Source: a virus
Taxonomy: Duplodnaviria > Caudoviricetes
IMG/VR virus record: IMGVR_UViG_3300005611_000013
Location: 1 to 64,000 of that record
DNA length: 64,000 nt
Reading direction: 5' to 3' (one strand)
How positions within the stretch are numbered: position 1 is the first letter of the stretch; each line of letters starts with the position of its first letter. Made by a program: the position numbers and the translations under genes. The notes under the pieces are model-generated. The model had not been told where the DNA came from. It saw only the letters and a list, made by a program, of their open reading frames with translations, and did not search any database. Of this stretch, positions 30,024 through 48,903 are shown in pieces.

Positions 30024-30026
30024 AAG

Positions 30027-30098: not shown

Positions 30099-30108
30099 TT
30101 CTAATATC

Positions 30109-30771: not shown

Positions 30772-30837
30772 GTTATAAGACTTGCTATTTCTAACAAGTC
30801 AAACTAAATATAATTTACCTTATACTCTTCAATCATT

Positions 30838-31311: not shown

Positions 31312-31544
31312 GAGAATAGATTATTTAGCCAAGCCTTTCTCTTAGAGCATCCACACTCTTGTAAATTAAACCACTCCTTAAAACGTTCTTGAGTGATGCC
31401 AAATTTTGTAAGCACTTCTTCAACAACGTCGCCCAACCCAACTACATCTGATTCTGTATGGCTGTCTTTGTTTAACCCTTTGGTTTCTAATTCTTTTATT
31501 ACCTCGTCCATTTCTTTTCTTATGTCACTCATTCTTATCTCCAT
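31290..31544 (-). CDS. Hypothetical protein (GLGD..CGC..R motif)
   Basis: ORF track. Confidence 0.55.
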   Translation of the reverse strand: MEIRMSDIRKEMDEVIKELETKGLNKDSHTESDVVGLGDVVEEVLTKFGITQERFKEWFNLQECGCSKRKAWLNNLFSWQRSSK

Positions 31545-31962: not shown

Positions 31963-32360
31963 TTTTTTCTCCTATTTTCTATTATTAGTGGGTTTTTCTC
32001 CCAATTAATATTCTTTTATAATGTTTTCTATGGGAGCTTTTCCCCTAATCTATAGACTATATACACCATAAAACGCATAATTAACCCAAGTAAAACGTAT
32101 GTCATAAAGAGGGTGTTGATCACTACACAAATGCAAAAAACAACTATACTCTCTAACAAAGCATACATAAATACACTATAGTACATATATACCCTATATA
32201 CTGGGATGTGGATTTTGGTGTTTTATTTGGGCTTTTTTTATTGAACGTGGGCCTCCCATAACATATATTTCAAAAAATGTCTTTCCCAATCTTTAAGGAT
32301 CAGAGCATTGTCATATAGGTGTTTTTTATATATGCCCTATATAGAAAAGGTATAAAGTGC

Positions 32361-32636
32361 CTATATTTCTATGTGTTCCATTGCGTACTCTATTATGGAT
32401 ATATACTGGTCTACTTGTAGGGGGGTGAATTCTTTACCTATACATGCCAATCCATACCTATACTGAAGTCTCTGTTTCTTATTATACTCCGTAAGTTCAT
32501 AAAGTTCATTCATTAAATCTATATCCTCGGCCCTATCAAATATATCAAGTAATGTGGTATATGCCGTCGTGTCATTGTATTTCCCATATATACTAGACAT
32601 ATGTTCGTAAAACTTCTTCTTAGATGGTATCTTCAT
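32361..32636 (-). CDS. Hypothetical protein
   Basis: ORF track, RBS AAGGAG. Confidence 0.55.
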   Translation of the reverse strand: MKIPSKKKFYEHMSSIYGKYNDTTAYTTLLDIFDRAEDIDLMNELYELTEYNKKQRLQYRYGLACIGKEFTPLQVDQYISIIEYAMEHIEI

Positions 32637-32702
32637 AAGGTTCTCCTTTATATACGAAAAATTGTACTATTTTGTTACTATTGGGCCTATATAGGGGCAA
32701 AG

Positions 32703-33128
32703 TTATACTAAAAGTCGCTCTGATACGTTAACTTTCATAATTTTATGTGGGGCATTATACATATTTGGTATAAGGGGTGATTGTTTTTCTGGACCCATGT
32801 ATATGTATGTATAGCCAGATTTACCATATACCCTAAGACCAGATACGTCTTTACCTAATACAGTGTATATACCGGGATCTGACATATATGTCTTCTCGCC
32901 TTCTTGGTTTATATAGTAGGTGCCAGAGCGGCCCATAACTTTAATCCTTTGGCCCACCTCAATATCACTCCAGCTTATACTCTCTAATTTCTTAACATGC
33001 TTCTTCTTTACCTTGCTACCCTTGGCTCGCACCTCAAACGACTCCCCACAATGCTTACAGGTGTACGCACGGGCACCATTTATTTGATTGCACTTCCCAC
33101 AGAGCTTTTGTCCACGTTTTAATTTCAT
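32703..33128 (-). CDS. Zn-ribbon hypothetical protein
   Basis: CGKC..CKHC; sigma70 promoter at 33194-33221. Confidence 0.6.
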   Translation of the reverse strand: MKLKRGQKLCGKCNQINGARAYTCKHCGESFEVRAKGSKVKKKHVKKLESISWSDIEVGQRIKVMGRSGTYYINQEGEKTYMSDPGIYTVLGKDVSGLRVYGKSGYTYIYMGPEKQSPLIPNMYNAPHKIMKVNVSERLLV

Positions 33129-33633
33129 TTTAATTGTACCTCATTTTTCGCTGGCTGTAGACATCTGGACGATCTGTATAGTTCCGCCAGTACATTCTAC
33201 TCTATTATCGGCACTTGTCAAGTACCACTTTAATTTTTATTCTCTTTTGGTATATATGTCTAGACCCCATCCCTTATCAGATACCATAGGTTCTGATTGG
33301 AAAGGGCCAGTATTAGCTTATAGTGGTATGTATCTGATATATGGACCAGGACGCTGGGGTCTATGTAGGATCAACTACCTACTCGTTGCCTGGACGGCCC
33401 AATGGCCTTTCGCTAACACTCGTCTCAACCCACTTATGAGGACTAGCCTCTCCAAACGTCGTATATTGTTTGGCTTTCTTTATGCTTGGTATTGTTTTTC
33501 GTCTAATAATCCAAGAGAATAACGACATAGGGGAGGATTTCCAGCCCACCCCTCTACATACTAACGTCTTAATCAGATTATTGCAAGGGCAATTTTTCTG
33601 AAATTCCGCTGGCTGTACCTATGTTGCCGATCT

Positions 33634-33996
33634 TTAAAGTTTGGGTAAGACAAACTCTAACTTATTATCCTTCATATTGACGGCGTAACTATTAGCCATC
33701 CTTATAGTGTCTATATCGTGAATTACACACTTAGCATATACATTAACCCGCCACCTATTTTCAAATGTATTAATAGACCTACAATGAGAATAATTACTGG
33801 GCTTCTCAATGTAATTAAAAATTAGATCACAAGGGGTCATCTTCATATCCATAAATTCTCCTATAAATAGTAAAAACCGCTGGCTGTACCTATGTTGCCG
33901 ATCTGTAAAGATAGGGTAGTACAACCCTGAACCTTTGTACACTACTATACATCTGTACACTAGTGAACATACGTACACTACTATACATACATACAT
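33634..33996 (-). CDS. Hypothetical protein (real start probably MDMKMTP near 33850), flanked by a ~30-bp direct repeat
   Basis: CCGCTGGCTGTACCTATGTTGCCGATCT at about 33606 and 33877. Confidence 0.5.
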   Translation of the reverse strand: MYVCIVVYVCSLVYRCIVVYKGSGLYYPIFTDRQHRYSQRFLLFIGEFMDMKMTPCDLIFNYIEKPSNYSHCRSINTFENRWRVNVYAKCVIHDIDTIRMANSYAVNMKDNKLEFVLPKL

Positions 33997-34050
33997 CCAT
34001 TAATCAATCTGATGGAACTCCATTATACCATGAGGAAATCTGAAAGTCAA

Positions 34051-34132
34051 CGTAAGTGCTTGATATCATTAGACTTACGTCACCGACGCCCCGCCCCCCG
34101 AGCCGTAAGTCCTTTGTTTTCAACGACTTACG
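34051..34132. repeat. Palindrome doublet A1 (34051-34079, 34104-34132)
   Basis: CGTAAGT-N15-ACTTACG x2, 53 bp start-to-start, C-rich linker. Confidence 0.95.
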
Positions 34133-34209
34133 TCACCGGGGCGAATGGAGAGCGGGAGAACGGGGCTGATGAACAGATGAACACGGCCCCGTCTCCCTTC
34201 CCACCACCT

Positions 34210-35412
34210 TTACAGTGTAAGAGCGTACACCTTCTCATAATCCTTGTCGGTGTACGTTCGTGAACGTGCGAGAATGTTAGTCCATCGTGATGCACTAGTG
34301 TCCATCAGTAGACCGCCGATCTCATCAAGACGAACCCATGACTCATTATCAAACACCTGACCCGCACGGGTGATGGCGTTGATGATACCAAACTTGTTAT
34401 GCTCATGGGTTTCATGGGCAAGATACTGCTCAAGCGTTTCCGTTGCCTGTTTCTTGCTCAACTTGAAGTCGGAAGCAACGGCAGCGATAACACCCTTGGC
34501 GTTTGCATTGTCCATTGATTCCGCACGGGTATCAAGGAACTTACGAATACCGTCAGGAAGGATGGACAACTGAAACTCAATGTTTTCAGCAATCATAATC
34601 TTGAGTTTATCAAGATCAATCTTTCCACGGTGAACCCGTGAAATATCCTTACCCTTTGTCTGACCCCAGATGCAACCATTCATGCAGATCGCACGAAAGA
34701 GGCTAGGCGTCTGCGTGATGCGGCGTTTGCCGATCTCACAGTTACCCACAGAAACCATGCCACCGTAGTCGGTGTCGTCATCCTGACCATAATCAATAAC
34801 AGAGTCAGGAATCAGAAGGTTGCCGTAGATAGTATCCTCATCACCCTTCCAGTGTGAGAACCGTGCATCGGGCAGGAACTCACGAAGAGTTTCCAGATAC
34901 CAGCGGTTATCAATCGGGGCATACTTATCGGTAACAAACGCACGGGCAGTCCCGTCAGTATAGGTGCGAAGGCGAAACTCCTTGTCGGCATCAATCCGAC
35001 GCAGAGCGTTATTGCCAATGCGGGCCATGAGGTCGGCATCGTGCTCATCGTACCCATCCAGTTTGCGAAGTTCACGCATGACGCTGGACGATGGAACCTT
35101 GGTGCGGATGCTAAACTGCTCCAGGCAGTGATCCGTTGGCGTGAACGAGCGACCGTCAGCAGTGGTGAACTGCATGACATCATTCACAACCGTGCAGGAA
35201 ATCTGCCCAGCCTTGACCATGACATCCTCACGGTTATCAATGGCGTTTTGAGTCTTCTCAAGAACGTCATCGTAGGATTCAGTTTTAGCCCACCAATCTT
35301 TGTGGACATGGGCATTCTCTGCAAATCCTGTTCCGGTCGCACCTGTCAGGTTGCGAACAAATGAACCCGCAGTAATATCGCTATCAATCTTGATTTTCTC
35401 GTAAACAGTCAT
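34210..35412 (-). CDS. DUF932-like phage/plasmid protein
   Basis: ARAFVTDKY..IDN, GNCEIG..., FRAICMNG, VHRG. Confidence 0.7.
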   Translation of the reverse strand: MTVYEKIKIDSDITAGSFVRNLTGATGTGFAENAHVHKDWWAKTESYDDVLEKTQNAIDNREDVMVKAGQISCTVVNDVMQFTTADGRSFTPTDHCLEQFSIRTKVPSSSVMRELRKLDGYDEHDADLMARIGNNALRRIDADKEFRLRTYTDGTARAFVTDKYAPIDNRWYLETLREFLPDARFSHWKGDEDTIYGNLLIPDSVIDYGQDDDTDYGGMVSVGNCEIGKRRITQTPSLFRAICMNGCIWGQTKGKDISRVHRGKIDLDKLKIMIAENIEFQLSILPDGIRKFLDTRAESMDNANAKGVIAAVASDFKLSKKQATETLEQYLAHETHEHNKFGIINAITRAGQVFDNESWVRLDEIGGLLMDTSASRWTNILARSRTYTDKDYEKVYALTL

Positions 35413-35456
35413 ATCAATCTCCTAAGTGGTGGGAATCAAACTCAACTCTGTATATC

Positions 35457-35702
35457 TTACTCTACTTCATCTTCATTGTCAAGGTCAAAAATCTGATCAA
35501 AACAAGAGCCACAAGTACTACTGATCAGAAGTTCACGTTCGCCAGCAGAAAGGTATGGCATCATGTCTTGAATAAAGGCTTCGCCAGAACACCAATCGGC
35601 ATAGTCTTGTGGATCAATGTACATGGTGTACAGAATGCCACAGTGCTTGCATCGCACATTGAACGGGTATCGCGGGTTTTTCGTCATATGGGCAACCATC
35701 AT
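35457..35702 (-). CDS. Small Zn-ribbon protein
   Basis: CKHC...YLSAGERELLISSTCGSCFD. Confidence 0.65.
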   Translation of the reverse strand: MMVAHMTKNPRYPFNVRCKHCGILYTMYIDPQDYADWCSGEAFIQDMMPYLSAGERELLISSTCGSCFDQIFDLDNEDEVE

Positions 35703-35781
35703 TTCTCTCCTTCGTGTCCCTTGATTCTACACTACGTATCGTCCATGTCAAGGGGTTTTCTTGAGGAAAAATATTTTGTGT

Positions 35782-35863
35782 CGTAAGTCCTTGATATGAC
35801 TAGACTTACGTCGCCGCCGCCCCGCCCCCCGGAGCGTAAGTCCTTACGCCCCAAGGGTTTACG
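35782..35863. repeat. Palindrome doublet A2 (35782-35810, 35835-35863)
   Basis: Same architecture, 53 bp; right arm of second copy GTTTACG. Confidence 0.95.
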
Positions 35864-37592
35864 TCACTCAACCGGAAAGAGAAGTAGTTGAGGCCCGTTA
35901 GCAGTATATTCCACCTGTTTATCAAACTCTTTTAGTTCATAACCATAATCATCATCATAACCATAGGTTGCCTCTTCTATTGCTTGCATTTCTAGACGTT
36001 TGAGTTTTTCTTCATTTCCATCCTCAAACAGTTCATATAGAAGCATGTGGGCAACTTCATTATTTAACCATTCGTGATATTCACTTTCCCAAGTATCAAA
36101 GTACATTTCTCTGAGTTGCTGGGGCGTGTAAAGATCAAAAATACTACTTGCCATTATAGTGTCTCCCTTAGGTTCATTTATTCTGCTTCGCTGTAAAAAG
36201 CAAAACTCTGAAAAAGACTATCAACTTCATCTAGAGTCCAAGTATAACTAGGACTATTTCCCTCATAATGCTTAATGTGTTCACTCAAACACTCTAGAGC
36301 ATCCAGAATAATATTCATATCATGCTTTTGAATATAGTAAGTCATATTATAGTGACTCCCTTATTACCTGTACCAGATTAGACACATCGCCCAACTCATA
36401 CGCAAGATAATCATCTTCCATCTGATCTATAATCTTTTGTAAATTACCTTCAATCCTTTCTAGTGCAACCTTCAGGTCTGCTAGTGTCCAACGCTCGTCT
36501 GGATTCATATCAATAGCAGACATTATTTTTTCTTTGGAGATTTTCATGAATATGTCCTATCAGAGTAAACTTCCTCACCATTCTCGTCTTCAACAAGAAT
36601 ATCGGAATGGTTCCACCCTAGTTCCTGAGCGTCTGACATAGCGTGTTCCATGCTATAGATAACGTACTCATCCTTATACTCGTTGTCAAGAGCAAGCCAC
36701 TGTTTGGCAGTAATGAATGAGCTAGAAGCCACACCCTCATATAATCGCATAAAGATTGTGTTATCATCAAGAACCATATAACCACTAAACTCTACAACAA
36801 CTTTTCCAGCCATTTTAGCACCCCAAACTAATAAGAATGTCTTCGGAACCTTCCCAATCCAACTTGCGGTCCAGTATATATTCTAGTTGGGCCTTTGTCA
36901 AGAGGGTATCAGCATTATTTCCGAAAGAAATCTCACTATGATTAACCTCCCCAAAAACCGCTTCAATATCCAACTTATTAAACTCACAAAGGACTTCTAG
37001 AGTTACGCATTCAATGGTGAAAGTTTTCATCACTCGTCCTCCTGTGGCGACTCGTAGTCCTCGGCCTCCCAGTAGCACGGTGCTACTGGCTGTCCAGTAA
37101 AGTGAGCGATAGCCCGTTTGGCCCGCAGGATCATGTCTCTTTGCGAGTGCATATCCATGCCGGTCTGCTCATGGCATTCAGTGTCGTACTCATACTCCTC
37201 TAAGATGTCGGCCAGCACACTATGAAGTTCACACGCTGCCTGTGGGTTGCTTTTCATCACTCGTCCTCCTCCCATGTTATTCAAACTCCTTCAAGTGTTT
37301 AACGATAGAATCCCTGCGGGTACGTTGCCGTTTGGGGCGGTTGTCCATAATAGTAACTTTGCGGTCCTGTCTGTGTCCCGTAGGGACTTGCCAGATTTTG
37401 CGGGGGCTGATTTTGATACCCTTGATTTTGTGGTACGTTTTGCTCATACATATAGCCTTGGTGATAAATGTAATACTTTCCTGTTTGTGGGTTATAATAC
37501 TGTTGCACCGGTTGAGGGTGATATTGGGCAGGATTCTTGAGTTGATTACTTGCAAGACCCAAAAGCCCCATCACTACTACTAAAGTTTCCAT
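35864..37592 (-). other. Cluster of short acidic hypothetical genes plus a Q/Y/P-rich ORF
   Basis: 35864..36154, 36347..36547, 36544..36813, 36815..37030, 37030..37257, 37299..37592; ~20-nt RBS+start repeat GGAGGACGAGTGATGAAAA used twice. Confidence 0.65.
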
Positions 37593-37694
37593 ATTATAAC
37601 CTCATTCGTTGTTTGAGATAAGTGTCCAAATGAACACCATGATGAATAGTTCTATGATATAGGCAACCCTCCTTTCTCATTACATAATGGAGAG

Positions 37695-37770
37695 TAGGGC
37701 GTGCTGGAGTCGAACCAGCCTATGAACACCTTATAAGAGTGTCGGATGCAACCGGCTTACCTTACGCCCC
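37695..37770 (-). tRNA. tRNA-Ile with UAU anticodon
   Basis: Acceptor GGGGCGT/ACGCCCT-A, stem ACACT/GGTGT, loop CT-TAT-AA, T-arm GCTGG-TTCGACT-CCAGC. Confidence 0.88.
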
Positions 37771-37823
37771 GTCGTGTGAGCGACATGCACCATTATAGCA
37801 CATGCCGCCCACACCGTCAAGGG

Positions 37824-38072
37824 CTAGGACAAAACGGTATCAACCATCTTGTCACATCGCAGGGTACGATACTGACGACTCTTTGGCTCAAGAACCAGAG
37901 CGTATCGGCCATGAGGACCGTCGCCCACCTTCTCAACCACGCCATCGTGCCACTTCAGCACATTCAGACGGCCATGCTTAGGGTACTTGCAACGGATATG
38001 CTGACCAACGGTAAGAGCCTTAGAAACTTCAACGTATGACATAAAATCAACCTCCAAAAACAATAGATTCAA
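37824..38072 (-). CDS. Small SH3/WYL-like hypothetical protein
   Basis: ORF track; beta-rich with C-terminal YRTLRCDKM. Confidence 0.5.
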   Translation of the reverse strand: MNLLFLEVDFMSYVEVSKALTVGQHIRCKYPKHGRLNVLKWHDGVVEKVGDGPHGRYALVLEPKSRQYRTLRCDKMVDTVLS

Positions 38073-38456
38073 CTTGCGAGAACGTCAACGCGACGATCTT
38101 CCCCTTGACATCAACCTTTACACCCTCGCGGGTGATGGAAACAACCTTACCATCTGCAAGGTCACTCCCAAGTCCGATCAGTGGTTTCATTCACTCCCTT
38201 TCTTAATGGGCTACTTGTTATATCGTCATTTTATCAGAGGAACTTGAGTTGTCAACCGTTTTTTTCGTTTTTTTGGCTGACTACCCATTTTCCCATGATC
38301 TTGCTAGATCAGCTAAGACAAACCCGTACAAGTGTTCAGTACTGTACAGTGTACACCACTGATCATCTGTCCAGCTTAATCCCTCCTCACTACTCCCTCA
38401 TTCTACACTATCATCGTCCTATGTCAAGGGGTATCTTGAGATTTTCTTGTGAGTGT

Positions 38457-38538
38457 CGTAAGTCTTTTGTTTTCAAGCACTTACGTCACCGGCCCCCCGC
38501 CCCGCGAGTCGTAAGTCCTTTGGTATCAACGACTTACG
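38457..38538. repeat. Palindrome doublet A3 (38457-38485, 38510-38538)
   Basis: Same architecture, 53 bp. Confidence 0.95.
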
Positions 38539-38582
38539 TCACGCGAGGGTTTTGGTGAACATGCGTTCACGTTATATTAACA

Positions 38583-39287
38583 TCAGTGAGAAGGGAATAG
38601 TACATTTTTCTTACCGCGAGGACACATATTGCAGGCGTTACTATCTTTACTTCCCGTGCATGTTACAAAGTCACGGCCCTTGCGAATCTCCGGACATGTT
38701 ACAAATGTTTCACCTTCCAACACCACAAGTTTAGGAAGGGCGGCTTGCCACTCGGCTTTCTTTACTTTACCGCGAGGACGCTTTGATACAATGGCCTCGT
38801 CGGAATCACACCACGCGAACAGTTTGAAACCTACTCGCTTGGCTTCTGCCATATCTTCCGCATTGTGAATGCTAGCATACACTGCCATATACTTTTCTAG
38901 TGAAACAAGTCGGCTATCATAAATATGAGTATAAAACCACATATCGGGAAGAGTATAACCGGACTTGATAACAGATTCACAAGCAACACTAACATTATTA
39001 ACATAGTCCTCATCAAGTTTTCCATCAAGAAACCAATCTCCCCGTTCGTGCCATCGGATAGACTTTCCACGCTTAATAGCATCAATGATCATGCTGCGAA
39101 TGCGGGCTACTTCAGTTATAACGTTTTGCATACTGGCGGGGCGAACATTCTTATACTGTCGTTCCGTCGCTTCGGCATAGCACCCATTGCCCAAGAATGC
39201 ACACGTTGAGGGGCAAGTATCGCCCACCGGACGGCTAACAACAACGCAGCCCTTACCCAGTTTGTCGTTCCCGTTTGCTACTTTCAT
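38583..39287 (-). CDS. Cys-rich phage protein (GP88-like, possibly Fe-S/radical-SAM-related)
   Basis: CPSTC..CYA, RWHERGDWF, C-terminal CPE..C..C..C. Confidence 0.5.
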   Translation of the reverse strand: MKVANGNDKLGKGCVVVSRPVGDTCPSTCAFLGNGCYAEATERQYKNVRPASMQNVITEVARIRSMIIDAIKRGKSIRWHERGDWFLDGKLDEDYVNNVSVACESVIKSGYTLPDMWFYTHIYDSRLVSLEKYMAVYASIHNAEDMAEAKRVGFKLFAWCDSDEAIVSKRPRGKVKKAEWQAALPKLVVLEGETFVTCPEIRKGRDFVTCTGSKDSNACNMCPRGKKNVLFPSH

Positions 39288-39373
39288 TTTCTCGTCTCCG
39301 TTGGTGATGCTCTCATTCTACAAAGTATATCGGCAACGTCAAGCGGTATTCTTGAGAAAAAAAAAGATTTTTA

Positions 39374-39428
39374 TGGCACACGGTTTGCACGGGCAAATAT
39401 CATGCCAAAGCTGCGGCACAGAAAATGC
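39374..39428. promoter_or_regulatory. sigma54 box triplet (+,-,+)
   Basis: TGGCACACGGTTTGC (+39374), TGGCATGATATTTGC (-39407), CGGCACAGAAAATGC (+39414). Confidence 0.75.
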
Positions 39429-39440
39429 CTAGAGAAGTGA

Positions 39441-39522
39441 CGTAAGTCGTTGGTATGACTAGACTTACGGCTTTGCCGCCCCGCCCCCCGAGTCGTAAGT
39501 CCTTTGATTGCAAGGGTTTACG
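39441..39522. repeat. Palindrome doublet A4 (39441-39469, 39494-39522)
   Basis: Same architecture, 53 bp; TAA stop of ORF 39518..39928 lies inside the second copy. Confidence 0.95.
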
Positions 39523-39928
39523 TCACCAAGCAATCTTGATCAATGTAGCACCTATGCCCACTAGTTATAATAGTGTCCACATGTCTACCATTCCAGTTTT
39601 CTTCTGGAAAACCCTCCAAACGCCACGCAGTATCAACTATGGGGTTAAAGTATAAGCGAGGATACTCGTCAGTATTTGCAGGACTAAAAACACTAAGATC
39701 ACTACAAAACACATTGCGACACTGAACCCATCCACAAACGTCTTTAACTCCTGCGGCGTATACTTTTCTCGCTTTTGATTCATTGCACACTAACTCACAA
39801 TCTACCATAGTAAGTTGATATTTTGTTGGGTCAACATAAGATGGGGCACACTGCCTATCTTTCCCATCACGAATCTGCCAAAACTTATAGTAAGGTCCAC
39901 GTTGAAGGTGAAAACGAACATTATACAT
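39518..39928 (-). CDS. Hypothetical protein
   Basis: ORF track, RBS GAGG. Confidence 0.65.
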   Translation of the reverse strand: MYNVRFHLQRGPYYKFWQIRDGKDRQCAPSYVDPTKYQLTMVDCELVCNESKARKVYAAGVKDVCGWVQCRNVFCSDLSVFSPANTDEYPRLYFNPIVDTAWRLEGFPEENWNGRHVDTIITSGHRCYIDQDCLVT

Positions 39929-40146
39929 TTAGTTAACCTCTTCGTAATCGTAATCTTCGTCGTAATCATCGCCCACGTAGCAGTCTAGTTCATCATCATA
40001 CCACCACATCTCAGATATGTCAAGATCATCTTCATCCATTTTCATCACCATAAAAAGAGTAAAGGAAACAAAGAAACATAATACTTAGTATGAGTTCAAA
40101 CATTGTATATTCCTATTATACACAGAAAAACGATACTTGTCAATAG

Positions 40147-40219
40147 TAGGGGCGGTGGGACTCGAACCCACGATTTACGGTTTAAAAGACCGTTGCTTTA
40201 GCCACTAAGCTACACCCCC
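40147..40219 (-). tRNA. tRNA-Lys(UUU)
   Basis: Cloverleaf, loop CT-TTT-AA; own sigma70 promoter 40228-40255. Confidence 0.93.
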
Positions 40220-40256
40220 ATATTATCATTATACGACACTTGCGAATCCTGTCAAG

Positions 40257-40340
40257 TCCCAGATGGAGGAATTGAACCACTTGACGCCACCCTACATAAT
40301 ATGTCAGTTGATTTACAGTCAACCGTAGGGATCATCTGGG
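40257..40340 (-). ncRNA. Atypical D-armless tRNA-like RNA with GUA anticodon
   Basis: CCCAGATG/CATCTGGG stem, GTTGA-CTGTAAA-TCAAC arm, GG-TTCAATT-CC T-arm, no D hairpin. Confidence 0.6.
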
Positions 40341-40348
40341 TATTATAG

Positions 40349-40840
40349 TTACCACCAATCGGGAGCGGGCCTGCCCTTCTCCCACTTGGCAAATCTTGCT
40401 TTGTCCATTTTATAGTATTTGCGGTAACTGTCAACCGCATTTTCTGAACGATATTCTTCCGGCATGGCCTGTGCATATGGCGTTTGTGGCCCAATGTTAA
40501 TATAGTCCATCATATCGGCCATTTGTAATATACCATTATGACATGAGTGACGTTTACTATAACGCATAGTATATTCTTCACATAATGCTATACCATGAAG
40601 AGCGGCCCATACAAAGTTAGTTATACTATCGCCAATCCATATTGTAACGGGATGGTGTTTATATCCACCTATAAGTGGAGTACCCTTAGACGTTAGCGGC
40701 ATAGCGGAATCGGTAGCACCGTGGCGACGTAATGCACTACCCATCATCTGGAAAGTTTCAACAACCATTTTTGGTATATGCTTATCACACATACTTTGGG
40801 CTGCTATCTCTGGATCGTTATCTAATACGAAAAGATTCAT
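40349..40840 (-). CDS. Pyrimidine-dimer DNA glycosylase (DenV-like) family protein
   Basis: MNLFVLDNDP..AAQSMCDKH..KM..E..QM; HP..IW; QAMP..Y...YRKYY. Confidence 0.8.
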   Translation of the reverse strand: MNLFVLDNDPEIAAQSMCDKHIPKMVVETFQMMGSALRRHGATDSAMPLTSKGTPLIGGYKHHPVTIWIGDSITNFVWAALHGIALCEEYTMRYSKRHSCHNGILQMADMMDYINIGPQTPYAQAMPEEYRSENAVDSYRKYYKMDKARFAKWEKGRPAPDWW

Positions 40841-41577
40841 TATACATTCTCTGCTCTTTCTAGTGCGGTGCGAATCAGATCTTTCACTGTTATACCATGC
40901 TCGTTCGCCAAGTCAAGAGCATTTTCTCTCATGGGTTTAGATAAAACCGCCATGTGTGACGATAATACTCTCAGAATAAAAAATATAGCAGATTCTTTAT
41001 CCATATCACATCTCCTAAGTACTCATGCGCTCTTCATATATTTCAGCCACTCTTTGTCGGATCTCCACCCATTCTTCAAGGGTGTCAAACTCAGCAAGTT
41101 GTTCTGCAAGTTCCTCGCCAGTGTAACACTCAACTATATACTGTCCCCACGTATGGTAGTTTTCTTCTGCGAGAATCTTAGCCTCACCAATATCTGCCAG
41201 AGTTACTTTCATCATCTTCTCCAAAGTATATTAAAACACCCAGGTAGGACTCGCACCTCAGTACAGTATCTTACCAGAAACACTAGGCTATGTCAAGTGA
41301 TAAGATAGCCTATCTGTACTCCATCTTGCTTGGCTGGGCGATGCTTTGATTATACACTCTATATCGGCACTGTCAAGCGGAATCTTGAGCGTTTTTTGGC
41401 TGACTACCCATTTTCCCATGATATGTCAGGATAGGGCTGTACACCCCTATTCATTTGTACATCAGTGTAAATCTGTACACTACTGTACACCCGTACATCT
41501 AGTGTACATTACCCATCTCCTGTACACCTATCCATTCTACCATATCATCGGCACATGTCAAGTCTGAACTTGAGTGA

Positions 41578-41659
41578 CGTAAGTCCTTTGTTTTCAAGTA
41601 CTTACGACACAAAACCCCCCGCCCCGGTGACGTAAGTCCTTTGATACCAACGACTTACG
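41578..41659. repeat. Palindrome doublet A5 (41578-41606, 41631-41659)
   Basis: Same architecture, 53 bp. Confidence 0.95.
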
Positions 41660-42688
41660 ACTCGCGGGGGTTCTTGGTGAACAAACGTACACTATACGTC
41701 AAGTTTCAGCATTAATATAACCATACAAAATGAGGATAAAAACAATAACAGGCACAATGTTAAAAATACCATTATACATTAATATCCTCAATACTATGTT
41801 GTGCTATTTCATGCCAATCAACATTACTCAACGCGCTCATGATCAAATCGTCGTATAGTCCAGTTACATTTTCAAGTTCGTAGTTATCTTCAAAATGCTC
41901 CTTCAAGTATTCCGCGAGAAGTATAGCAGTCTCTTCTTCCTTTGTAAAATACTGCTGCTCTTCAGCCATACTATAGGCTTCTTTTACCATCTCAGCAAAG
42001 AACTGTTGAGACTCTGGATCATTATTCATCCAAGTATAAACAATCCAAGTTTCATAGTTCGCCCAACCATTATGCTTTTCTGACATTATTATTCTCCTAT
42101 TTTATCCAAGCGTAGGAACGTTCCCAACGTTTCATAATATAACTATGGCTCTTACTATAATGGCGAACCAGACCACCACCAGTAGGCCAAAACTTGCCGA
42201 TATAATACATTCCCTTGGCGGGATCGTACCATACTGAAACACCTTCACGATTTGGGCGTGTTACAAGGTACCGCTTGTCAGTGTAAGTGTTGCTCATTGT
42301 GTTCTTTCCTTGTGGTTGGTGTTGGAGTATTGCAAGGTTATCCATATTCTTTTCTTTTCCTTTTCTCAGATTCTACCAGATATTTTTGTGCTGTCAACGG
42401 GGAACGTTTGTTCACCCTCCCCATTCTTCTGTGATAACCTCACAATGCTCATGGCAGCATGGGCAAAGTTCGTGATCGGCTTCAACGCTATCCATGTACT
42501 CTCCACAGCAGTCGCTAATGAACAGAGTGACAGGGGTGAACGTCTCTTCACACTGAACGTTTGTGCTGAACTTCATCATGGTCTGAATTCCTTTGGTTTC
42601 CTTACTGATCATGCCCTGAGTCTATCAGATATATCGGCACCCGTCAAGCACTTTCTTCAAAGATTTTTCGGATTATTTTTTTCTTCTT

Positions 42689-42744
42689 TGGTACGCGGTT
42701 TGCTCGTGCAAATCTCATGCCAAAACTTTTGGCACGGTTTTCGC
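42689..42744. promoter_or_regulatory. sigma54 box triplet (+,-,+)
   Basis: TGGTACGCGGTTTGC (+42689), TGGCATGAGATTTGC (-42722), TGGCACGGTTTTCGC (+42730). Confidence 0.72.
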
Positions 42745-42756
42745 CTCTCCGAGTGA

Positions 42757-42785
42757 CGTAAGTGGTTGAAAATAAAGGACTTACG
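42757..42785. repeat. Single palindrome A6 followed by a G-rich linker
   Basis: CGTAAGT-GGTTGAAAATAAAGG-ACTTACG then ACTCGGGCGGCGGGG. Confidence 0.92.
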
Positions 42786-44040
42786 ACTCGGGCGGCGGGG
42801 CCCCGTAGTGTACAGGTGTTCAGTACTGTACACCTTGGGGGTGAACGGGATCGGGTAGTGTACATATGTCTACCTACTGAATGGGTGTTCAGTCCTCCCA
42901 CAGTGAACGTTCGTTCAGGATGTTGTCTTCGTCCATGTAGAATGCTAGAGTCTTCGCTCTAGTTTCGGCCTCATGGTCGCGGGCTGTTTTCCGCTTCAAC
43001 TTTTCTGACCTACGATCAAGCCAAGCCTCATAGTCGGCATCGCTCACCGTCCAATCCATCTCCTCTGCGGTGATTTCGGGACCGCGAAAATCTTCCAGAG
43101 CGTCAAAGAACTCTTCCCCCTCTGGAAGGGAGACGTTCTCTGTTTCTCTTTTGAGTTCTGCGATGGCTGCGTTGAACTCTTCAATGGTCAAGATTTTGTA
43201 GTTGATATTTTGCATTTTCTTTCCTTTTCCTTTTCTTCCTTTTCCCAAGTCTACCAGATATTTTTCGGCTGTCAACACTGAACACTTGTTCAGTATTCTA
43301 CTGGTGAACTGTTGAACAGCAGATAGAACACGACGAAAAACAGAACGATTGAAAGCACACTGAACATTTTTTCACCTCTCAGCAATCGGGGTCAAAACTC
43401 TGCCATTCATCATACTCGGTGGGTTGCCCATCGTCAACCTCAAAATCGTAAAATCCGTCGGAATCCTCATCTTCTGGCTCTGGCGAATAATCGTCCAGAA
43501 CAGCAATCTCCTCAAAACTTTTCATAATCCTAGCAAATGCTTCGGGGCTAACCTGAAACGGGCTTTCCATTTTCTTTCCTTTTCCTTTGTGGTGTCCTGA
43601 TTCTACCAGATATTTTTTAGGCTGTCAACACTGAACACTTGTTCAGGCTTCACAGAAAACCTTTTCAAGATGTAGAGTTGTCTTTGCATTGGCGATCCAT
43701 CCTTCTGGAATCAGACCATAGGCTTCATCGGCATTGATGGAATCAATGAATCCGACCTTCCGATCTCCATCCCAAACCGAGAATCCGGTTTGAATCAATC
43801 CATGTTGTGAACGTGGCTTCCACGTTCCGTGAATGTGAGAAGTACGGGCAATCTTGCGAACTAGTGAACGTTTCATTTTTCTTTCCTTTTCCTTTTCCTT
43901 TTCCTGATTCTACCAAAGTTTTTTTTGCTTGTCAACACTGAAAACTTGTTCAGTAGTTGTCGGGAAGGGTGATCCAAAACAGGAAGGCCAACCCCGAGAG
44001 AATGATGATTGTGATGATGTTTTCCATGCTAGAATATAGT

Positions 44041-44055
44041 GCGAATGCCGTGCCA
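44041..44055 (-). promoter_or_regulatory. sigma54 box TGGCACGGCATTCGC
   Basis: GG-N10-GC spacing; enhancer-like triplet about 100-180 bp upstream of its predicted start. Confidence 0.6.
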
Positions 44056-44126
44056 AACCCTGAAAAATATTTTTGTGCTTTTTTCCCGTGTTTTACGCAC
44101 ATTTTTTTTCGTGCCTATTTTTTAGG

Positions 44127-44207
44127 CGTAGCATTTTGCAACAGTGGTGTAGCATTTTGCGTCACTGTTTTCCCGAGTGAAATCGCAAAGTGTAGCATTT
44201 TGCAACA
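44127..44207. repeat. Three phased near-palindromes TGTAGCATTTTGCAACA
   Basis: Copies at 44127, 44148, 44191 (offsets 21 and 43 bp). Confidence 0.85.
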
Positions 44208-44262
44208 CCCCCCACTGGTGGTAACGCTTTTGGGCTGCTCACAGATTAGGCAGTGCGTTTTT

Positions 44263-44344
44263 TGGCACGGAAGTTGCTGTAGTGTGCAAATATCATGCCA
44301 AACGCTATCCGTCCGGTTTGGGTGAGACATGGCACGGCGTTTGC
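44263..44344. promoter_or_regulatory. sigma54 box triplet (+,-,+)
   Basis: TGGCACGGAAGTTGC (+44263), TGGCATGATATTTGC (-44300), TGGCACGGCGTTTGC (+44330). Confidence 0.78.
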
Positions 44345-44356
44345 CATGGCAAGTGA

Positions 44357-44438
44357 CGTAAGTCCTTATATATCAACGACTTACGACTCGGGCGGCGGGG
44401 CTTCAGCGACGTAAGTCCTTTATTCCCAAGGGTTTACG
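44357..44438. repeat. Palindrome doublet A7 (44357-44385, 44410-44438)
   Basis: 53 bp; linker in G-rich orientation. Confidence 0.95.
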
Positions 44439-45478
44439 TCACCGCCCGCTAGCCACTGTACATACGTTCAGGTATCCATCTGTTCAGCGTATGCCTCATC
44501 CATCATCATCATCTCTAGTGTACGCCTGTTCAGTTCTTCCATGTGTTCAGCATGTTCAGCCGATTCAGTGTACAGACGTTCATCTTCACACATTCCGGGG
44601 TAGTAGGTGTCCATGTGTATAGTGCTCCTTTGTTCAGTTGGAGGATTCGGGATACCAGTGGAGACGAAGTTGGTTCGCACAGTTTGCAATCAAGTTGCGA
44701 TGAAACTGGCGGTCATACTCATCAAGATCCCAACGTTCTAGGCAGATCTGGCTCTGCTTGATGGCAGAGATGAGATCCTGCACTTCATAGTCAAGATCTG
44801 AAAATCGGAATCCGGGGGTTTGTGCAACGCTCATTTTTCTTTCCTTTTCCTTTGTGATGCTCTGATTCTACCAGAGATTTTCTTGCTCGTCAACACTGAA
44901 CATGTGTTCAGTCAAGGTACTCTAGGCCAGTAATCTTGTCTTCGTGAAACGTCTTCGTCTCACCGCTGGTCAACAGTACGGTGATGCAGTAAACGTTTTT
45001 CAGTGAACGAAACCGGCTCACCACTTCACCGTCGCGGGCCTTGCCATTGTAGAAAAAGCGGATTCTTGGGTTTTTCATGTCTTTCATCTCCTTGGGTATG
45101 TCCTGATTCTACCAAATGTTTTTCGGGCTGTCAACACTGAACAGGTGTTCAGATCAGATCGTTCACCAGTTCGTTGCCATTCTGGTCAACGATCCTGAAC
45201 TCTGTAGCGTGGTCGCTACCTTCCCAATCGCCACGGACAATGTTTTCCAGCATGGCGGCATTGCTGTGAGTGGTGTACCCAATCACTTCGCCATAGATGT
45301 CATAGATACGGGCGATGAACAGAGGTGTAGTTGTGAAGTTCATTTTCTTTTCCTTTTCTTTCTTTTCCTTACTTCTTATATCGGCATTCTACCAAAGATT
45401 CTTGAATCCGCAATACTGAACAAATGTTTTTTTGTGTCAAGATTTCTTGACAAAGATCGCAGCAAGATTGCGGTCGTT

Positions 45479-45534
45479 TGGCACGCAGTGTGCTATTGCA
45501 AATATCGTGCCAAACTTTTTGGCATGGAAAATGC
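45479..45534. promoter_or_regulatory. sigma54 box triplet (+,-,+)
   Basis: TGGCACGCAGTGTGC (+45479), TGGCACGATATTTGC (-45512), TGGCATGGAAAATGC (+45520). Confidence 0.75.
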
Positions 45535-45546
45535 GTCCCGAAGTGA

Positions 45547-45628
45547 CGTAAGTCCTTTCATATCAACGACTTACGACTCGGGCGGCGGGGCCGCGATGAC
45601 GTAAGTCCTTTATTCCCAAGGGTTTACG
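45547..45628. repeat. Palindrome doublet A8 (45547-45575, 45600-45628)
   Basis: 53 bp; near copy of A7. Confidence 0.95.
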
Positions 45629-46404
45629 TCTCACGGTGGCGAACGCGGTGTACATGCGTCTACCTAGTGTACAGTTGTGAGTACTGAACAGATGTCTACC
45701 TGTACATGCGAATCCCCCTCATTAGAGAGAGGATTCTAGAAGGTGATGGTCAACCTGATTCTCATAGAAGTTGCGATACTCTCCACCTTCAAGGCGAACG
45801 CAAATCAAGGCACCCCTCTGGTAGAGATCCTCTGAACGATCCTCGCGGATGCTCATGATCTCGCCAGTGTACCGGTTTCCACTCTTGGAAACCCATTCCA
45901 CACTGTCACCGATCTTGTAGCGGTTTGAAGCGTTGACGTTGATGAAGTTTTTCATTTTTCTTTCCTTTGGTTTCTTTCTTCTTCTTCTATTCTACACTAT
46001 CGGCTTTTGGGTGTCAACCCCTTGAATGGATTTTTTTCAGCAGGCCAACGCTCCTGCTTGGCGTAGGATGGACATGCTGTACATGTTTTCATCACCATCC
46101 CACTTTTCCCAAGCCGCTGTTTCGGCTTCTTCCTTTGTCTGGAATGGACCAATGTAGTCCAGTTCGCATTCCCAAGCATCCATCACGAGAGCGTAGTAGT
46201 TGTAGATCATTTTCTGTTTCCTTTTCTTCTTTCTTTCCTTTTCTCTATTCTAGACTATCGGCAATCCGCTGTCAACCCCTTGAGGATTTTTTTTTCGGAT
46301 TTTTTTTGCCTCTCGTCTTTCCCTCTCAACTATGCCACCATTATACCAAACGATCCAGATTTGTCAATACTGTACAAATGTTTTTTTGGGATTTTTTTTT
46401 GTGT

Positions 46405-46442
46405 GCAAATATCATGCCAAAAATCATTGGCACGGCAAATGC
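46405..46442. promoter_or_regulatory. sigma54 box pair (-,+)
   Basis: TGGCATGATATTTGC (-46419), TGGCACGGCAAATGC (+46428). Confidence 0.75.
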
Positions 46443-46454
46443 GTCTGAAAGTGA

Positions 46455-46536
46455 CGTAAGTTGTTGGTATCAAAGGACTTACGACGCTGGCGGCGGGATG
46501 GCAGATACGTAAGTCTAGGCATATCAACCACTTACG
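46455..46536. repeat. Palindrome doublet A9 (46455-46483, 46508-46536)
   Basis: 53 bp; last unit before the strand switch. Confidence 0.95.
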
Positions 46537-46700
46537 ACTCATGGTAAGATGGGTGGGGTGGGGGTTTTATCTTCAAAAGTGAACTTGGGTAAAATGGCGA
46601 AAAAGCCCGGGGTGGTTCAAACAAAATAACCCCAATCAAATTAATATGTCTTACCCGATCTCTTCAGATAGACCCTAAGAGTTGCTAAATATTACCGCAA

Positions 46701-46710
46701 TGTGTATAAT
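46701..46710 (+). promoter_or_regulatory. Putative phage late-promoter motif TGTGTATAAT
   Basis: Same motif at 54212, 56294, 59375 (+) and 4591, 11422, 19954, 22253 (-), each upstream of a gene start. Confidence 0.6.
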
Positions 46711-46730
46711 ATCACTAGGAGGAAACAACT

Positions 46731-46904
46731 ATGAAACAGAAGAAACAAATAGACTGTCAATTGAATTGCAAAGCGACCGCATCTTTGTCGTTAGAAGTAT
46801 TAAACGATTTAAATCAAGAAGATCGCCCCATTGCATCCATAATTAACGACGAACGAAGTGAGGATGACGATGAAGTTAAAAACATCCAGAATCCAAGCAC
46901 TTGA
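46731..46904 (+). CDS. Small hypothetical protein (MKQKKQIDCQ...)
   Basis: RBS AGGAGG, read manually, 57 aa. Confidence 0.55.
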   Translation: MKQKKQIDCQLNCKATASLSLEVLNDLNQEDRPIASIINDERSEDDDEVKNIQNPST

Positions 46905-47634
46905 AAAGGGTCTACCAACTAACACATCCGATATAGAACTACTAGGCACAGAAGCCCTAATAGTAGATAAAGATTACGCACAGCTAATTGAACAAAAAGA
47001 AATAAGCTCATCCACAAATAGTTTTATTTCACTATTTGGCATTAACACAAAGTTCTTTTACTCTATAACGTTAGTATGCGAAGATCACGGTTTCACTGAA
47101 CGTGGCTTGGGCTATGTATCTGAAAACGAAGGTAAATTCTTCTTAAAAAGATTCCGCCCCTTCTACATGATAGACAACGGCATTCCCATCCCCCTTCTCA
47201 AACCCAGGCCCGTTGTCTGCTCCCATAACGATTATGTTATGGTATCTTCATACGTACCAACAACATTCGTTGAGGTACTTACTGAAGCTAATTCTGTTAT
47301 TACGTCTGAATCGCCCCACCTCCCAACATCCGTTGTCGTTAATAAGAACTCCGTTCTTGGAAGACATGACGGTAATCTGGAGTCTTTGCCCCTTGACTCA
47401 CTTGTTGGAGAAGAATCGGCCCGTAAGTCCGTAACAGACTACAATAAAAATTTATCTTTAAAAAGCCCAAAGGTTGATATTAAACGTTTGACAGCCAATA
47501 ACATCCAACTTAACACAATGAAAAATGCCCCTGAACGAAAAGGCGTTATATATTATGATGAAACAGACGACTGTATTAAATACTATGACGGTACTAAGTG
47601 GAGATCGCTAGTGTGGCAAGAGGACGGCCCATGA
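46858..47634 (+). CDS. Hypothetical protein, virion-type C-terminal motif
   Basis: KGVIYYDETDDCIKYYDGTKW terminal motif. Confidence 0.6.
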   Translation: MRMTMKLKTSRIQALEKGLPTNTSDIELLGTEALIVDKDYAQLIEQKEISSSTNSFISLFGINTKFFYSITLVCEDHGFTERGLGYVSENEGKFFLKRFRPFYMIDNGIPIPLLKPRPVVCSHNDYVMVSSYVPTTFVEVLTEANSVITSESPHLPTSVVVNKNSVLGRHDGNLESLPLDSLVGEESARKSVTDYNKNLSLKSPKVDIKRLTANNIQLNTMKNAPERKGVIYYDETDDCIKYYDGTKWRSLVWQEDGP

Positions 47635-48125
47635 AAATACCCCAAGGAATGAACGAACAACAAGTGGTTGAACAAATTAACATTGTCGTTAATAGGATTT
47701 CGCCCAAGTACACATTTAAGGGGTACGAGGTTGAGGATATAAAACAAGAGGCTTTTATGATATGTATGGACGCCCTTGACCGTTATGACGCAAGTCGGCC
47801 CCTTGAGAATTTCTTATCAGTACATCTTTCTAATAGATTGAAGAATTTTGTAAGAGATAACTTCTTCGTCAAAGACGACGAAGATAAGAAGAGGGTACTG
47901 GCCCCAAAGCAATTACCACATGACGATCAAATTCTTGACAGGGAATGCAATATAGATGATAAGCTGGATATGGGCGACATAAAAATAATAATAGACCGCT
48001 TTTTGCCCGTTGAGCTTCGGTCTGATTACTTAAAGTTCACAAGTGAAGCTTATATACCAAAGAAAAGAAAACTTTATCTTATTGAGGTAATACGTGAAAT
48101 TCTAAAGGAGAATGGTTATGCGTAA
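47598..48125 (+). CDS. Phage sigma-70-like factor (region 2-like)
   Basis: EVEDIKQEAFMICMDALDRYD.SRPLENFLSVHLSNRLKNFVRD. Confidence 0.72.
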   Translation: MEIASVARGRPMKIPQGMNEQQVVEQINIVVNRISPKYTFKGYEVEDIKQEAFMICMDALDRYDASRPLENFLSVHLSNRLKNFVRDNFFVKDDEDKKRVLAPKQLPHDDQILDRECNIDDKLDMGDIKIIIDRFLPVELRSDYLKFTSEAYIPKKRKLYLIEVIREILKENGYA

Positions 48126-48903
48126 GGGTAGAATTTCCAAAGAAGAAGAACGCACAATTGCCCGTCTACTTGATAGTATGACGCCTGAAGACATAGCGGC
48201 AAAACTAGACCGCGATGTAGAGTCTGTTATTGACTTTATTAAACGTAAGTTCAGGGTGGGCGTTACAAACGAAGAAGCCGCCGCTTTCTCTTTAGAAGAT
48301 CGGCCCTATTGGCTAGAGCTTAAAAATCAATTCACAAATGAAGAACTTGAATTATTCAAATATCATTGGTCCCGCATTATCGCACAGTTCAAAGATGACG
48401 TTTTCCCAACGGAAGAACTTCAGGTTGTTGATGTTATAAAGCTTGAGCTATTAATGAATAGGTGCCTTAAAGCTAATAAGGATAATATTGAGCAAATAAA
48501 CATTTACGATAAATTGTTGAAAGAAGAGAGGGAAAATGATAGAGATCAACAGGATCAAGATACTATTATTAACTTAGAACGGCAAACGGCGAGCCTTCGT
48601 GCAGCACAAGAAAGTTTGAATAGGGATTACCGCGAACTTCAAGCTAAAAAGTCAAGCATGTTAAAAGAGATGAAGGGTACTAGAGAACAGCGAATAAAAA
48701 GACTTGAGGATAGTAAACAAAGTTTTACGTCTTGGGTTGCAAGTCTTATACAAGATCCAGAGAAAATGAAAAAGTACGGCATTGAAATGGAAAAAATGAG
48801 ACTTGCCATGAAAAAGGAAGAGGAAAGATTAGGGGCTTATCACAAATACGAAGATGGCATGATTGATCAGCCATTCTTAACACCAGACACGGTTAGAGAA
48901 TAA
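48112..48903 (+). CDS. HTH + long coiled-coil protein; terminase small-subunit candidate
   Basis: N-terminal MTPEDIAAKLDRDVESV HTH, coiled coil, position in the packaging operon. Confidence 0.4.
   Translation: MVMRKGRISKEEERTIARLLDSMTPEDIAAKLDRDVESVIDFIKRKFRVGVTNEEAAAFSLEDRPYWLELKNQFTNEELELFKYHWSRIIAQFKDDVFPTEELQVVDVIKLELLMNRCLKANKDNIEQINIYDKLLKEERENDRDQQDQDTIINLERQTASLRAAQESLNRDYRELQAKKSSMLKEMKGTREQRIKRLEDSKQSFTSWVASLIQDPEKMKKYGIEMEKMRLAMKKEEERLGAYHKYEDGMIDQPFLTPDTVRE

Follow-up and report, generated by a model that had tools for sequence, protein, structure and literature searches.

The window analysed here is the first 64 kb (64,000 nucleotides) of the 73,081-bp IMG/VR virus record IMGVR_UViG_3300005611_000013 (Duplodnaviria; Caudoviricetes), a record estimated to be about half complete. 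It contains an array of 29-bp palindromes, most of them arranged in doublets of fixed spacing, and this array is the subject of the present report. The palindromes lie in an early-gene zone (34000–48000) with a G+C content of 41–48%, compared with 33–37% in the rest of the contig; the high-G+C zone stops at ~46.6 kb, where coding goes from the minus to the plus strand. Some 27 near-consensus sigma70 promoters, none of them on the plus strand, precede small open reading frames (ORFs) at 33–46.4 kb (33200–46400). They conform to TTGACA-N16/17-TAnAAT, many with an extended −10 element, and are followed by strong AAGGA-rich ribosome sites. The 33–46.4 kb zone looks like an early region of the host-takeover type.

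A scan of the window with the pattern CGTAAGT-N15-RYTTACG returns 17 plus-strand matches, all within 34–46.5 kb, which form eight doublets, each exactly 53 bp start to start, and one lone copy at 42757. The chance expectation, estimated from 100 dinucleotide shuffles of the window, is zero matches. The array had been described in an earlier, sequence-only reading of this DNA, and the pattern scan confirms its 17 copies, their positions, and the geometry of the eight doublets. Beyond these 17, no further copy is present in the whole 73,081-bp record, even when up to six mismatches to a refined consensus are allowed; the motif does not recur at equal density outside the early zone. The real unit spans 29 bp and is palindromic, with half-sites of 12 nt (CGTAAGT-SS-TTG ... 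CAA-SS-ACTTACG) on either side of a variable centre of 5–7 nt. The N15 cores and the linkers had been taken to be diverged. This is true of the central 5–7 nt and of the linker sequences, but the inner 4–5 nt on each side of N15 are conserved, so that the core is only partly free, and the 24-bp linkers of the window doublets, although different in sequence, all keep a G+C-rich core.

The doublets lie −5 to 112 nt past the stop codon of a minus-strand early gene, ahead of the next sigma70 promoter (Table 1). At four loci (34051, 35782, 38457, and 41578), the −35 element of that promoter is only 0–31 bp from the pair, while at the other five (39441, 42757, 44357, 45547, and 46455) a conserved module of ~90 nt, with up to three sigma54-type boxes, lies between the pair and the sigma70 promoter. 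The palindromes are not phased with the sigma70 promoters, because their centres fall at approximately −50, −66, −79, and −80 relative to the sigma70 starts. Features of intrinsic terminators are absent: no T-run follows any window copy, and a terminator scan calls none of them terminator-like.

Table 1. Palindromes and sigma54-type boxes of the window, with their surroundings (strand signs precede box positions)
Feature	Coordinates	Sigma54-type boxes ahead	Surroundings
Doublet 1	34051–34079 + 34104–34132		77 nt past stop of minus-strand gene 34210–35412; abutting sigma70-like promoter, −35 at 34050
Doublet 2	35782–35810 + 35835–35863		right arm of second palindrome is the GTTTACG variant; abuts stop codon of gene 35864–36154; next promoter −35 at 35751
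Doublet 3	38457–38485 + 38510–38538		44 nt past stop of gene 38583–39287; next promoter −35 at 38427
Sigma54-type boxes near doublet 4	39374–39428	+ 39374, − 39393, + 39414	between doublet 4 and sigma70 promoter at 39342; proximal plus-strand box points into palindrome 39441
Doublet 4	39441–39469 + 39494–39522 (GTTTACG variant)		5-nt overlap with stop codon of gene 39518–39928
Doublet 5	41578–41606 + 41631–41659		112 nt past stop of gene 41772–42086; promoter −35 at 41561
Single palindrome	42757–42785 (module 42689–42785)	+ 42689, − 42708, + 42730	usual linker; GTGTACA-type motif in place of second palindrome
Doublet 6	44357–44385 + 44410–44438 (GTTTACG variant)	+ 44263, − 44286, + 44330	29 nt past stop of gene 44468–44689
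Doublet 7	45547–45575 + 45600–45628 (GTTTACG variant)	− 45498, + 45520	93 nt past stop of gene 45722–45955
Doublet 8	46455–46483 + 46508–46536	− 46405, + 46428	divergence point of minus-strand early genes (promoter −35 at 46367) and plus-strand operon

The family is by no means restricted to this record. A scan of IMG/VR with the pair pattern returned at least 117 stretches, which gave at least 300 copies, at least 249 of them unique. Among the matches listed, more than 100 uncultured phage contigs carry the palindromes, grouped within the early-gene zone. Of the unique copies listed, 169 from phages and 75 from bacteria, all 244 have an inner spacing of N15, a count that includes second copies of pairs, which the search pattern left unconstrained. 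Most of the pairs listed are spaced at 52–54 bp; the commonest spacing is 53 bp, others are 50, 48, and 42 bp, and a few pairs are at 51, 52, and 54 bp. The linkers are G+C-rich and come in few lengths. A second sample, independent of the motif, consisted of 80 relatives picked through a conserved 263-aa protein encoded beside a sigma-like gene. Palindromes are present at 29 loci of these relatives, all upstream of the sigma-like operon, and 27 of the 27 unique pairs are spaced at 52–54 bp. The earlier proposal that the geometry is under constraint is thus upheld: the near clade conserves a spacing of 52–54 bp, and distant lineages keep other fixed spacings. The accompanying suggestion that 53 bp places both sites on the same face of the helix is not supported, since other lineages use 42, 48, or 50 bp.

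In four of five complete genomes of relatives, the palindromes are confined to one stretch of ~2–20 kb; in the fifth, they lie near both ends of the record. Relative to the sigma54-type box, the order of the four half-site types is conserved. The polarity of palindrome and box matches that of the late-strand operon with the sigma-like gene, which is also the commonest neighbour (at least 37 of at least 117 loci). In the window, this plus-strand operon starts at 46858, beyond doublet 8, and includes the sigma-like gene at 47598–48125. Similarity searches found no cultured phage resembling the region or the doublet.

Sigma54-type −24/−12 boxes adjoin five of the nine window loci. About fifteen such boxes, in (+,−,+) clusters, occur in the window at 39374–46442. 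The pattern TGGCAY-N5-WTGC is found 146 times in 1.05 Mb of motif-bearing relatives versus once for the reversed control, and 65 versus 7 times in 0.96 Mb from relatives whose selection did not involve the motif. Such boxes are 20- to 100-fold commoner in relatives than the reversed control, without a bacterial enhancer-binding protein (bEBP) having been found in the contig or in complete relatives. In relatives, the box closest to a palindrome is directed into it, with 7–17 nt, mostly 12–13 nt, between TTGC and palindrome, so that the expected start site is at the palindrome edge. Approximately 22 of 31 oriented doublets of relatives have a box pointing into the first palindrome. No box is present at the other four window doublets, at any of the six doublets of relative L287, in many other relatives, or at any bacterial copy. 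The literature searched contained no description of sigma54-type promoters in phages.

Early genes are shuffled between relatives, and homology breakpoints are enriched at the palindromes. Of the ends of long high-identity alignments, 19.7% lie within 60 nt of a palindrome versus 8.4 ± 1.7% of random positions. In an intergenic-only control, 26.3% of breakpoints lie within 40 nt versus 14.6 ± 3.1% of random intergenic positions, and none of 500 random sets reached the observed value. The enrichment is thus ~1.8–2.3-fold, the intergenic control included, in counts that are not phylogenetically independent. In relative L100 (7931–8462), a cassette of ~530 bp, missing from L038, begins ~30 nt before a doublet. 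Gain or loss of cassettes, which the sequence-only reading proposed to look for exactly at the doublets, is seen in this case close to one. Its idea that the doublets are recombination sites shuffling early-gene cassettes gains support in that breakpoints are enriched and a cassette indel starts next to a doublet, and is not supported with respect to site-specific recombination, as no recombinase was found and the centres differ. Neither serine (PF00239) nor tyrosine (PF00589) recombinases were detected in 12 complete or near-complete relatives; homologous recombination at the repeats is therefore the best explanation of the exchange, and has also been proposed for the promoter early stem-loops (PeSLs) of T4-like phages (PMC2839356).

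Whether the palindrome acts as double-stranded DNA or as a hairpin was judged from its variation. In the phage copies, the arms are conserved in sequence and the centre is free. Watson–Crick pairing at positions 5–11 does not exceed the independence expectation, i.e., the arms vary independently, and uncompensated arm variants (for example, CCTAAGT with ACTTACG) are common in an unbiased scan with up to four mismatches (408 copies). When the first palindrome is oriented by the adjacent sigma54-type box, 77% of units lack a pair at position 8/20, and G·U and A·C occur without bias (38 versus 34). The second palindrome usually ends GGGTTTACG; this arm is a single inherited variant, which in L287 is located in another arm.

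Several signs of an RNA fold were considered and set aside. Covariation within each palindrome is absent from the phage copies. A strand bias of G·U over A·C reduces to the one inherited arm variant, placed elsewhere in L287. Pairing of the first palindrome with the second in a nested fold gives no better score than folding each as its own hairpin. In some window copies, the linker and the flank beyond the second palindrome seemed to form an outer G+C stem, which over 31 oriented doublets proved no better than shuffled flanks. In a covariance-model search, no Rfam family overlapped the doublets, either at the gathering score or at E ≤ 1. Because of the strict geometry, sequence-conserved arms, free centre, and independent half-sites, a dimeric sequence-specific DNA-binding protein appears to fit better, and we consider it somewhat more probable than an RNA hairpin. 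The independent variation of half-sites likewise suits the protein-binding platform proposed earlier better than a hairpin, as far as sequence can tell.

Palindromes of this kind also occur in bacteria. The strict single-palindrome pattern, applied to 185,579 species genomes, matched 82 stretches, with ~0.5 expected by chance (an estimate). The matches come mainly from Planctomycetota, Verrucomicrobiota, Treponema, Bacteroidota, Gemmatimonadota, and two Comamonadaceae. About 13 of the 82 look like mis-binned phage contigs; the remaining copies are single, mostly perfect palindromes, and the genes beside bacterial copies belong to no common family. Their single, scattered occurrence, together with a "spacer" of only 13–24 bp, led us to discard a likeness to CRISPR-like mini-arrays. 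A Verrucomicrobiae chromosome, OX638380.1 (L139, L180, L191, L192, L199, L202), contains six copies of an insertion sequence (IS) with a DDE_Tnp_1 transposase, each carrying a palindrome that directly precedes a sigma70-like promoter and lies 84 nt upstream of the transposase start. One Phycisphaerae metagenome-assembled genome (MAG) has 16 copies, and one Planctomycetaceae MAG has 10. In the former (L132, L147, L151, L161, L163, L178, L183), an intergenic repeat of ~130 nt has the palindrome as its core, with flanking direct TTTGGGTTCGTTT iterons, and adjoins unrelated housekeeping genes, including groEL and that of topoisomerase VI B. Among 300 sampled Planctomycetota genomes, 17 had one or two matches versus 10 for the reversed control, which is near background; the palindrome is therefore not a general feature of this phylum. 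The element is sporadic and associated with mobile elements, and is not a phylum-wide regulon.

In our opinion, the sequence anatomy, geometry, and polarity of the doublets, their position relative to genes and promoters, their conservation within the clade, and the enrichment of breakpoints near them would be best accommodated if the doublets formed the core of composite cassettes at the boundaries between early transcription units, joining sites for a symmetric-dimer protein with insulation and homology-based cassette exchange. We hold this reading tentatively, at somewhat less than an even chance. Each 29-bp palindrome would be recognised by a sequence-specific DNA-binding protein acting as a symmetric dimer, which probably comes from the host or from an unannotated phage gene, and the distance between the paired sites would be fixed within each lineage. 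Between a stop codon and the next promoter, the bound pair would insulate the early units, blocking read-through from the upstream sigma70 unit. Where an opposite-strand sigma54-type promoter abuts, the bound pair would cover +1 to ~+82 and might gate or block antisense (plus-strand) transcription. Because the same ~80-bp sequence recurs every 1–3 kb, it may also serve as a homology patch for the gain, loss, and exchange of early-gene cassettes between related phages. Protein binding, insulation, and control of sigma54-type promoters are functions that we infer from sequence; the underlying activity could be that of a roadblock, a gate on sigma54-type promoters, or an RNA hairpin. Bacterial copies, too, are found at unit borders, 3′ of tRNA and tmRNA genes and upstream of the IS transposase promoter, which we count in favour of the boundary reading.

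A number of observations weigh against boundary cassettes of this kind. No binding protein for the palindrome was found in the phage or in complete relatives. Profile searches detected no bEBP (PF00158) or HU/IHF gene in the window's contig; PF00158 gave only weak generic AAA+ matches in 27 relatives (12 of them complete), and the 15 relatives searched for sigma54 and HU/IHF genes yielded neither. The 12 complete genomes among the relatives searched for regulator genes measure 138–231 kb. The conserved 263-aa neighbour of the sigma-like gene has no homologue in five motif-bearing genomes of the Planctomycetota–Verrucomicrobiota–Chlamydiota (PVC) group, and the sporadic bacterial distribution is hard to square with a host factor as the binder. 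Pairs spaced at 48 or 50 bp are out of phase with the helix, and the breakpoint counts suffer from the non-independence mentioned above. In the second palindrome, a double transition in the distal arm keeps G·U on the box strand (81 versus 4). The arms of the bacterial copies covary (43/50 versus 32.9 expected and 36/50 versus 24.2 expected), which fits an RNA or single-strand hairpin. A hairpin would also fit the 12 of 60 bacterial loci (20%) that follow the 3′ end of a tRNA, tRNA-Sec, or tmRNA gene at a distance of 0–20 nt; none of these 12 copies is at the 5′ end of its gene, and some of them are beside integrases. The hairpin reading thus retains real support from the bacterial copies.

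Phrased at the RNA level, the alternative is that the sigma54-type promoter starts at the base of the first palindrome, so that plus-strand transcripts begin with a 5′-terminal double hairpin or one long nested hairpin. Such a structure might make the RNA more stable, serve as a put-like anti-termination signal, or provide an RNase III site, and 3′ hairpins might form on minus-strand early mRNAs as well. This is possible but doubtful. The distance from box to palindrome puts the expected start at the stem base, as it does for the boxes of most oriented doublets in relatives; the predicted folds are stable (−24 to −38 kcal/mol), the polarity is co-oriented with the late/sigma operon, the second palindrome keeps G·U/U·G pairing on the box strand, and the bacterial copies are near-perfect covarying hairpins, all 12 of those next to tRNA/tmRNA genes being at the 3′ end. 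However, conserved stem sequence with free loops and linker is the reverse of what most RNA–protein or base-pairing elements display, and the loop length is invariant. Under either fold, about half of the copies lack pairing at positions 7/21 and 8/20, and a preference for G·U over A·C is missing from the first palindrome and from all but two positions of the second. The four window doublets without a box and the six of L287, with their variant arm in the other position, also speak against it, as do the absence of an Rfam match and the failure of profile searches of contig and relatives to find a bEBP that could open a sigma54 promoter. A different possibility, which we would likewise entertain only with reserve, is that the pair is the operator platform of a phage transcription switch built on host sigma54, with a new sequence-specific factor at +1 to +82 that holds or releases the promoters. 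Sigma54-type promoters would face the early sigma70 units head-on, the phage encoding no AAA+ activator; early expression would be turned off and transcription fed toward the late-strand operon with the phage sigma gene. If this were true, the 29-bp site would belong to a new protein–site pair that phages, IS elements, and tRNA-integrated elements have in common and that spans several bacterial phyla. The suggestion of the sequence-only reading that the palindromes are IHF/HU bending sites, or an upstream enhancer of an AAA+ activator for sigma54-type promoters, appears unlikely. The IHF consensus WATCAANNNNTTR is indeed perfect in 6 of the 17 window copies, as had been claimed, and a further nine (not seven) have one mismatch; sigma54-type boxes abound in relatives, and sigma54 is encoded in five of five motif-bearing PVC genomes. 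Relative to the minus-strand box of the three-box module, the centres of the two palindromes are computed to fall near −76 and −129. Nevertheless, the consensus is perfect in only 57 of 227 unique copies of relatives (25%), and always in register 14–26 of the palindrome; such matches appear to be by-products, because the half-site has a conserved CAA-N4-TTA to which the free centre adds a WAT by chance. IHF sites contain one WATCAR between two kinks 9 bp apart, with TTR in one flank (10.1101/382655). The present site is palindromic and has no A-tract, in contrast to the asymmetric site expected of IHF, and its strongest conservation (positions 0–1, 5–6, 22–23, and 27–28) lies outside the IHF consensus. 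A palindrome with these extra invariant bases is not explained by IHF alone. With respect to an enhancer, a sigma54-type −24/−12 box adjoins the sites at five of nine window loci, but the conserved box points into the palindromes, which places the pair at +1 to +82 rather than ~70–200 bp upstream; only the optional second box has palindromes upstream. Moreover, many relatives and all bacterial copies have no box, and the genes that an enhancer or bending site would call for were not found in the phages searched.

The remaining explanations concern DNA mobility. Spread of a selfish palindrome, similar to repetitive extragenic palindromic (REP) sequences or miniature inverted-repeat transposable elements, by a transposase acting in trans among phages, IS, integrative elements, and some chromosomes would make the position at gene borders a matter of tolerated insertion. 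We find this improbable, despite the bursts in two MAGs and in the IS of one Verrucomicrobiae chromosome against a near-background level in 300 other Planctomycetota, the ~130-nt repeat beside unrelated housekeeping genes, the paired units with few fixed linker lengths that recall bacterial interspersed mosaic elements (BIMEs) and REP doublets forming hairpins (REPINs), and the enrichment of breakpoints at the copies. Three motif-bearing genomes have Y1_Tnp genes, but none of the eight loci examined has a palindrome alongside such a Y1/RAYT transposase (phages were not searched for Y1_Tnp). The GTAG or CGTC tag that defines REPs is missing from the sequence (PMC3733652), and no transposase or recombinase was found in the phages. 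The restriction of phage copies to the early zone, their conserved polarity, and their fixed geometry to promoter boxes argue for function rather than neutral insertion. Far less probable still are res-, dif-, lox-, or attC-like sites at which a dedicated recombinase shuffles cassettes. An 11-7-11 or 12-5-12 architecture does resemble recombinase core sites, breakpoints are enriched at the copies, and integrase genes accompany some bacterial copies at tmRNA/tRNA genes. However, apart from the missing serine and tyrosine recombinases, the central 5–7 bp differ in nearly all copies, including the two members of a pair, which would block strand exchange, and the odd length gives a single-bp centre unsuited to the 2-bp crossover of serine recombinases. 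A likeness to the res site of Tn3/gamma-delta, in which the centres of sites I and II are 53 bp apart, was set aside because of the odd palindrome length and the lack of a resolvase gene.

Other features of the window may be mentioned briefly. TGAACA-N4-TGTTCA and GTGTACA palindromes (33924–45156) are found directly upstream of many early −35 boxes and also 15–25 nt beyond the second palindrome of doublets; they may constitute a second operator family. At 47598–48903, the ORF resembling sigma70 region 2 (175 aa) overlaps the conserved 263-aa ORF, which has a weak N-terminal helix-turn-helix match. The two cluster together in relatives, one of which (L065) has a single 438-aa ORF, and they may represent a split or fused phage sigma factor. 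The phage has a tmRNA (tag GETHLALAA) and seven tRNA genes, located at 19176–19529 and 26838–40219; host assignment through the tmRNA gave no match. A group I intron is present at 27685–27874. The thymidylate synthase ORF (15508–17202) is interrupted by an HNH endonuclease domain at residues ~290–390.

The paired palindromes are real and conserved, and no named family was found to contain them. A sharply defined, widely conserved cis-element without a named family, binding protein, or cultured host is of interest as a handle on how large uncultured phages partition and switch early (host-takeover) transcription, here in an early region linked to sigma54-type promoters. It is also a sequence marker for sites of early-gene cassette exchange. 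The occurrence of the palindrome at tRNA/tmRNA 3′ ends and in the IS of unrelated bacteria suggests a portable boundary module, which might be used as an insulator part if the activity is confirmed.

Comparison with known systems helps to place the element. IHF sites (WATCARNNNNTTR) resemble it in that the half-site has CAA-N4-TTA in the right register and in that the palindromes are near sigma54-type promoters and mobile-element borders, where IHF sites are common; they differ by the symmetry, the missing A-tract, and the minority of full matches discussed above. Stoperators of cluster A mycobacteriophages are asymmetric sites of 13–14 bp, distributed genome-wide and bound by the known immunity repressor. 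Here as there, many copies of one operator would occupy short intergenic gaps of a phage genome, where a bound protein would stop transcription between units, but the present sites are paired palindromes restricted to the early zone. The put RNA of HK022 and sigma54-dependent small RNAs share with the doublets two adjacent stem-loops directly downstream of a promoter, whereas in our case covariation supporting a conserved RNA fold is missing and many copies have no promoter.

The closest parallels are REP/BIME/REPIN elements and PeSLs. One BIME class binds IHF and another binds gyrase. Like the elements of this group (PMC3733652), the palindromes are short (20–40 bp), imperfect, intergenic, and found right after stop codons in many paired copies, with conserved stem sequence, a free loop, and polar unit types joined by few fixed linker lengths. 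Unlike them, they have arms starting with CGTAAGT, low copy number, sporadic taxonomy, and an IHF-like match inside the palindrome rather than in the linker, and they are present in lytic-type phage genomes. PeSLs (PMC2839356, PMC4122927) are likewise repeated composite motifs of a variable early region, in which a stem-loop-capable sequence and a G/C-run precede a strong sigma70-like early promoter. In the window, this order is seen at 0–31 bp for four doublets and after the ~90-nt box module at five loci. Both kinds of motif flank small ORFs of unknown function, and indels and mosaic junctions occur at both, here as the breakpoint enrichment and the cassette of L100. PeSL stems, by comparison, are loosely conserved polyG/polyC hairpins shown to terminate transcription (PMC2839356, PMC4122927), whereas the present element is a 29-bp palindrome of specific sequence and invariant N15; it is polar, occurs doubled at a fixed distance, has no T-run, is often coupled to opposite-strand sigma54-type boxes, and is also present in bacterial genomes. 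By analogy, the pair would work most like PeSL cassettes and enterobacterial REP/BIME pairs, i.e., as a boundary module doubling as a recombination junction, and four traits would set it apart from both, namely strictness of sequence and spacing, doubling, polarity, and coupling to sigma54-type promoters.

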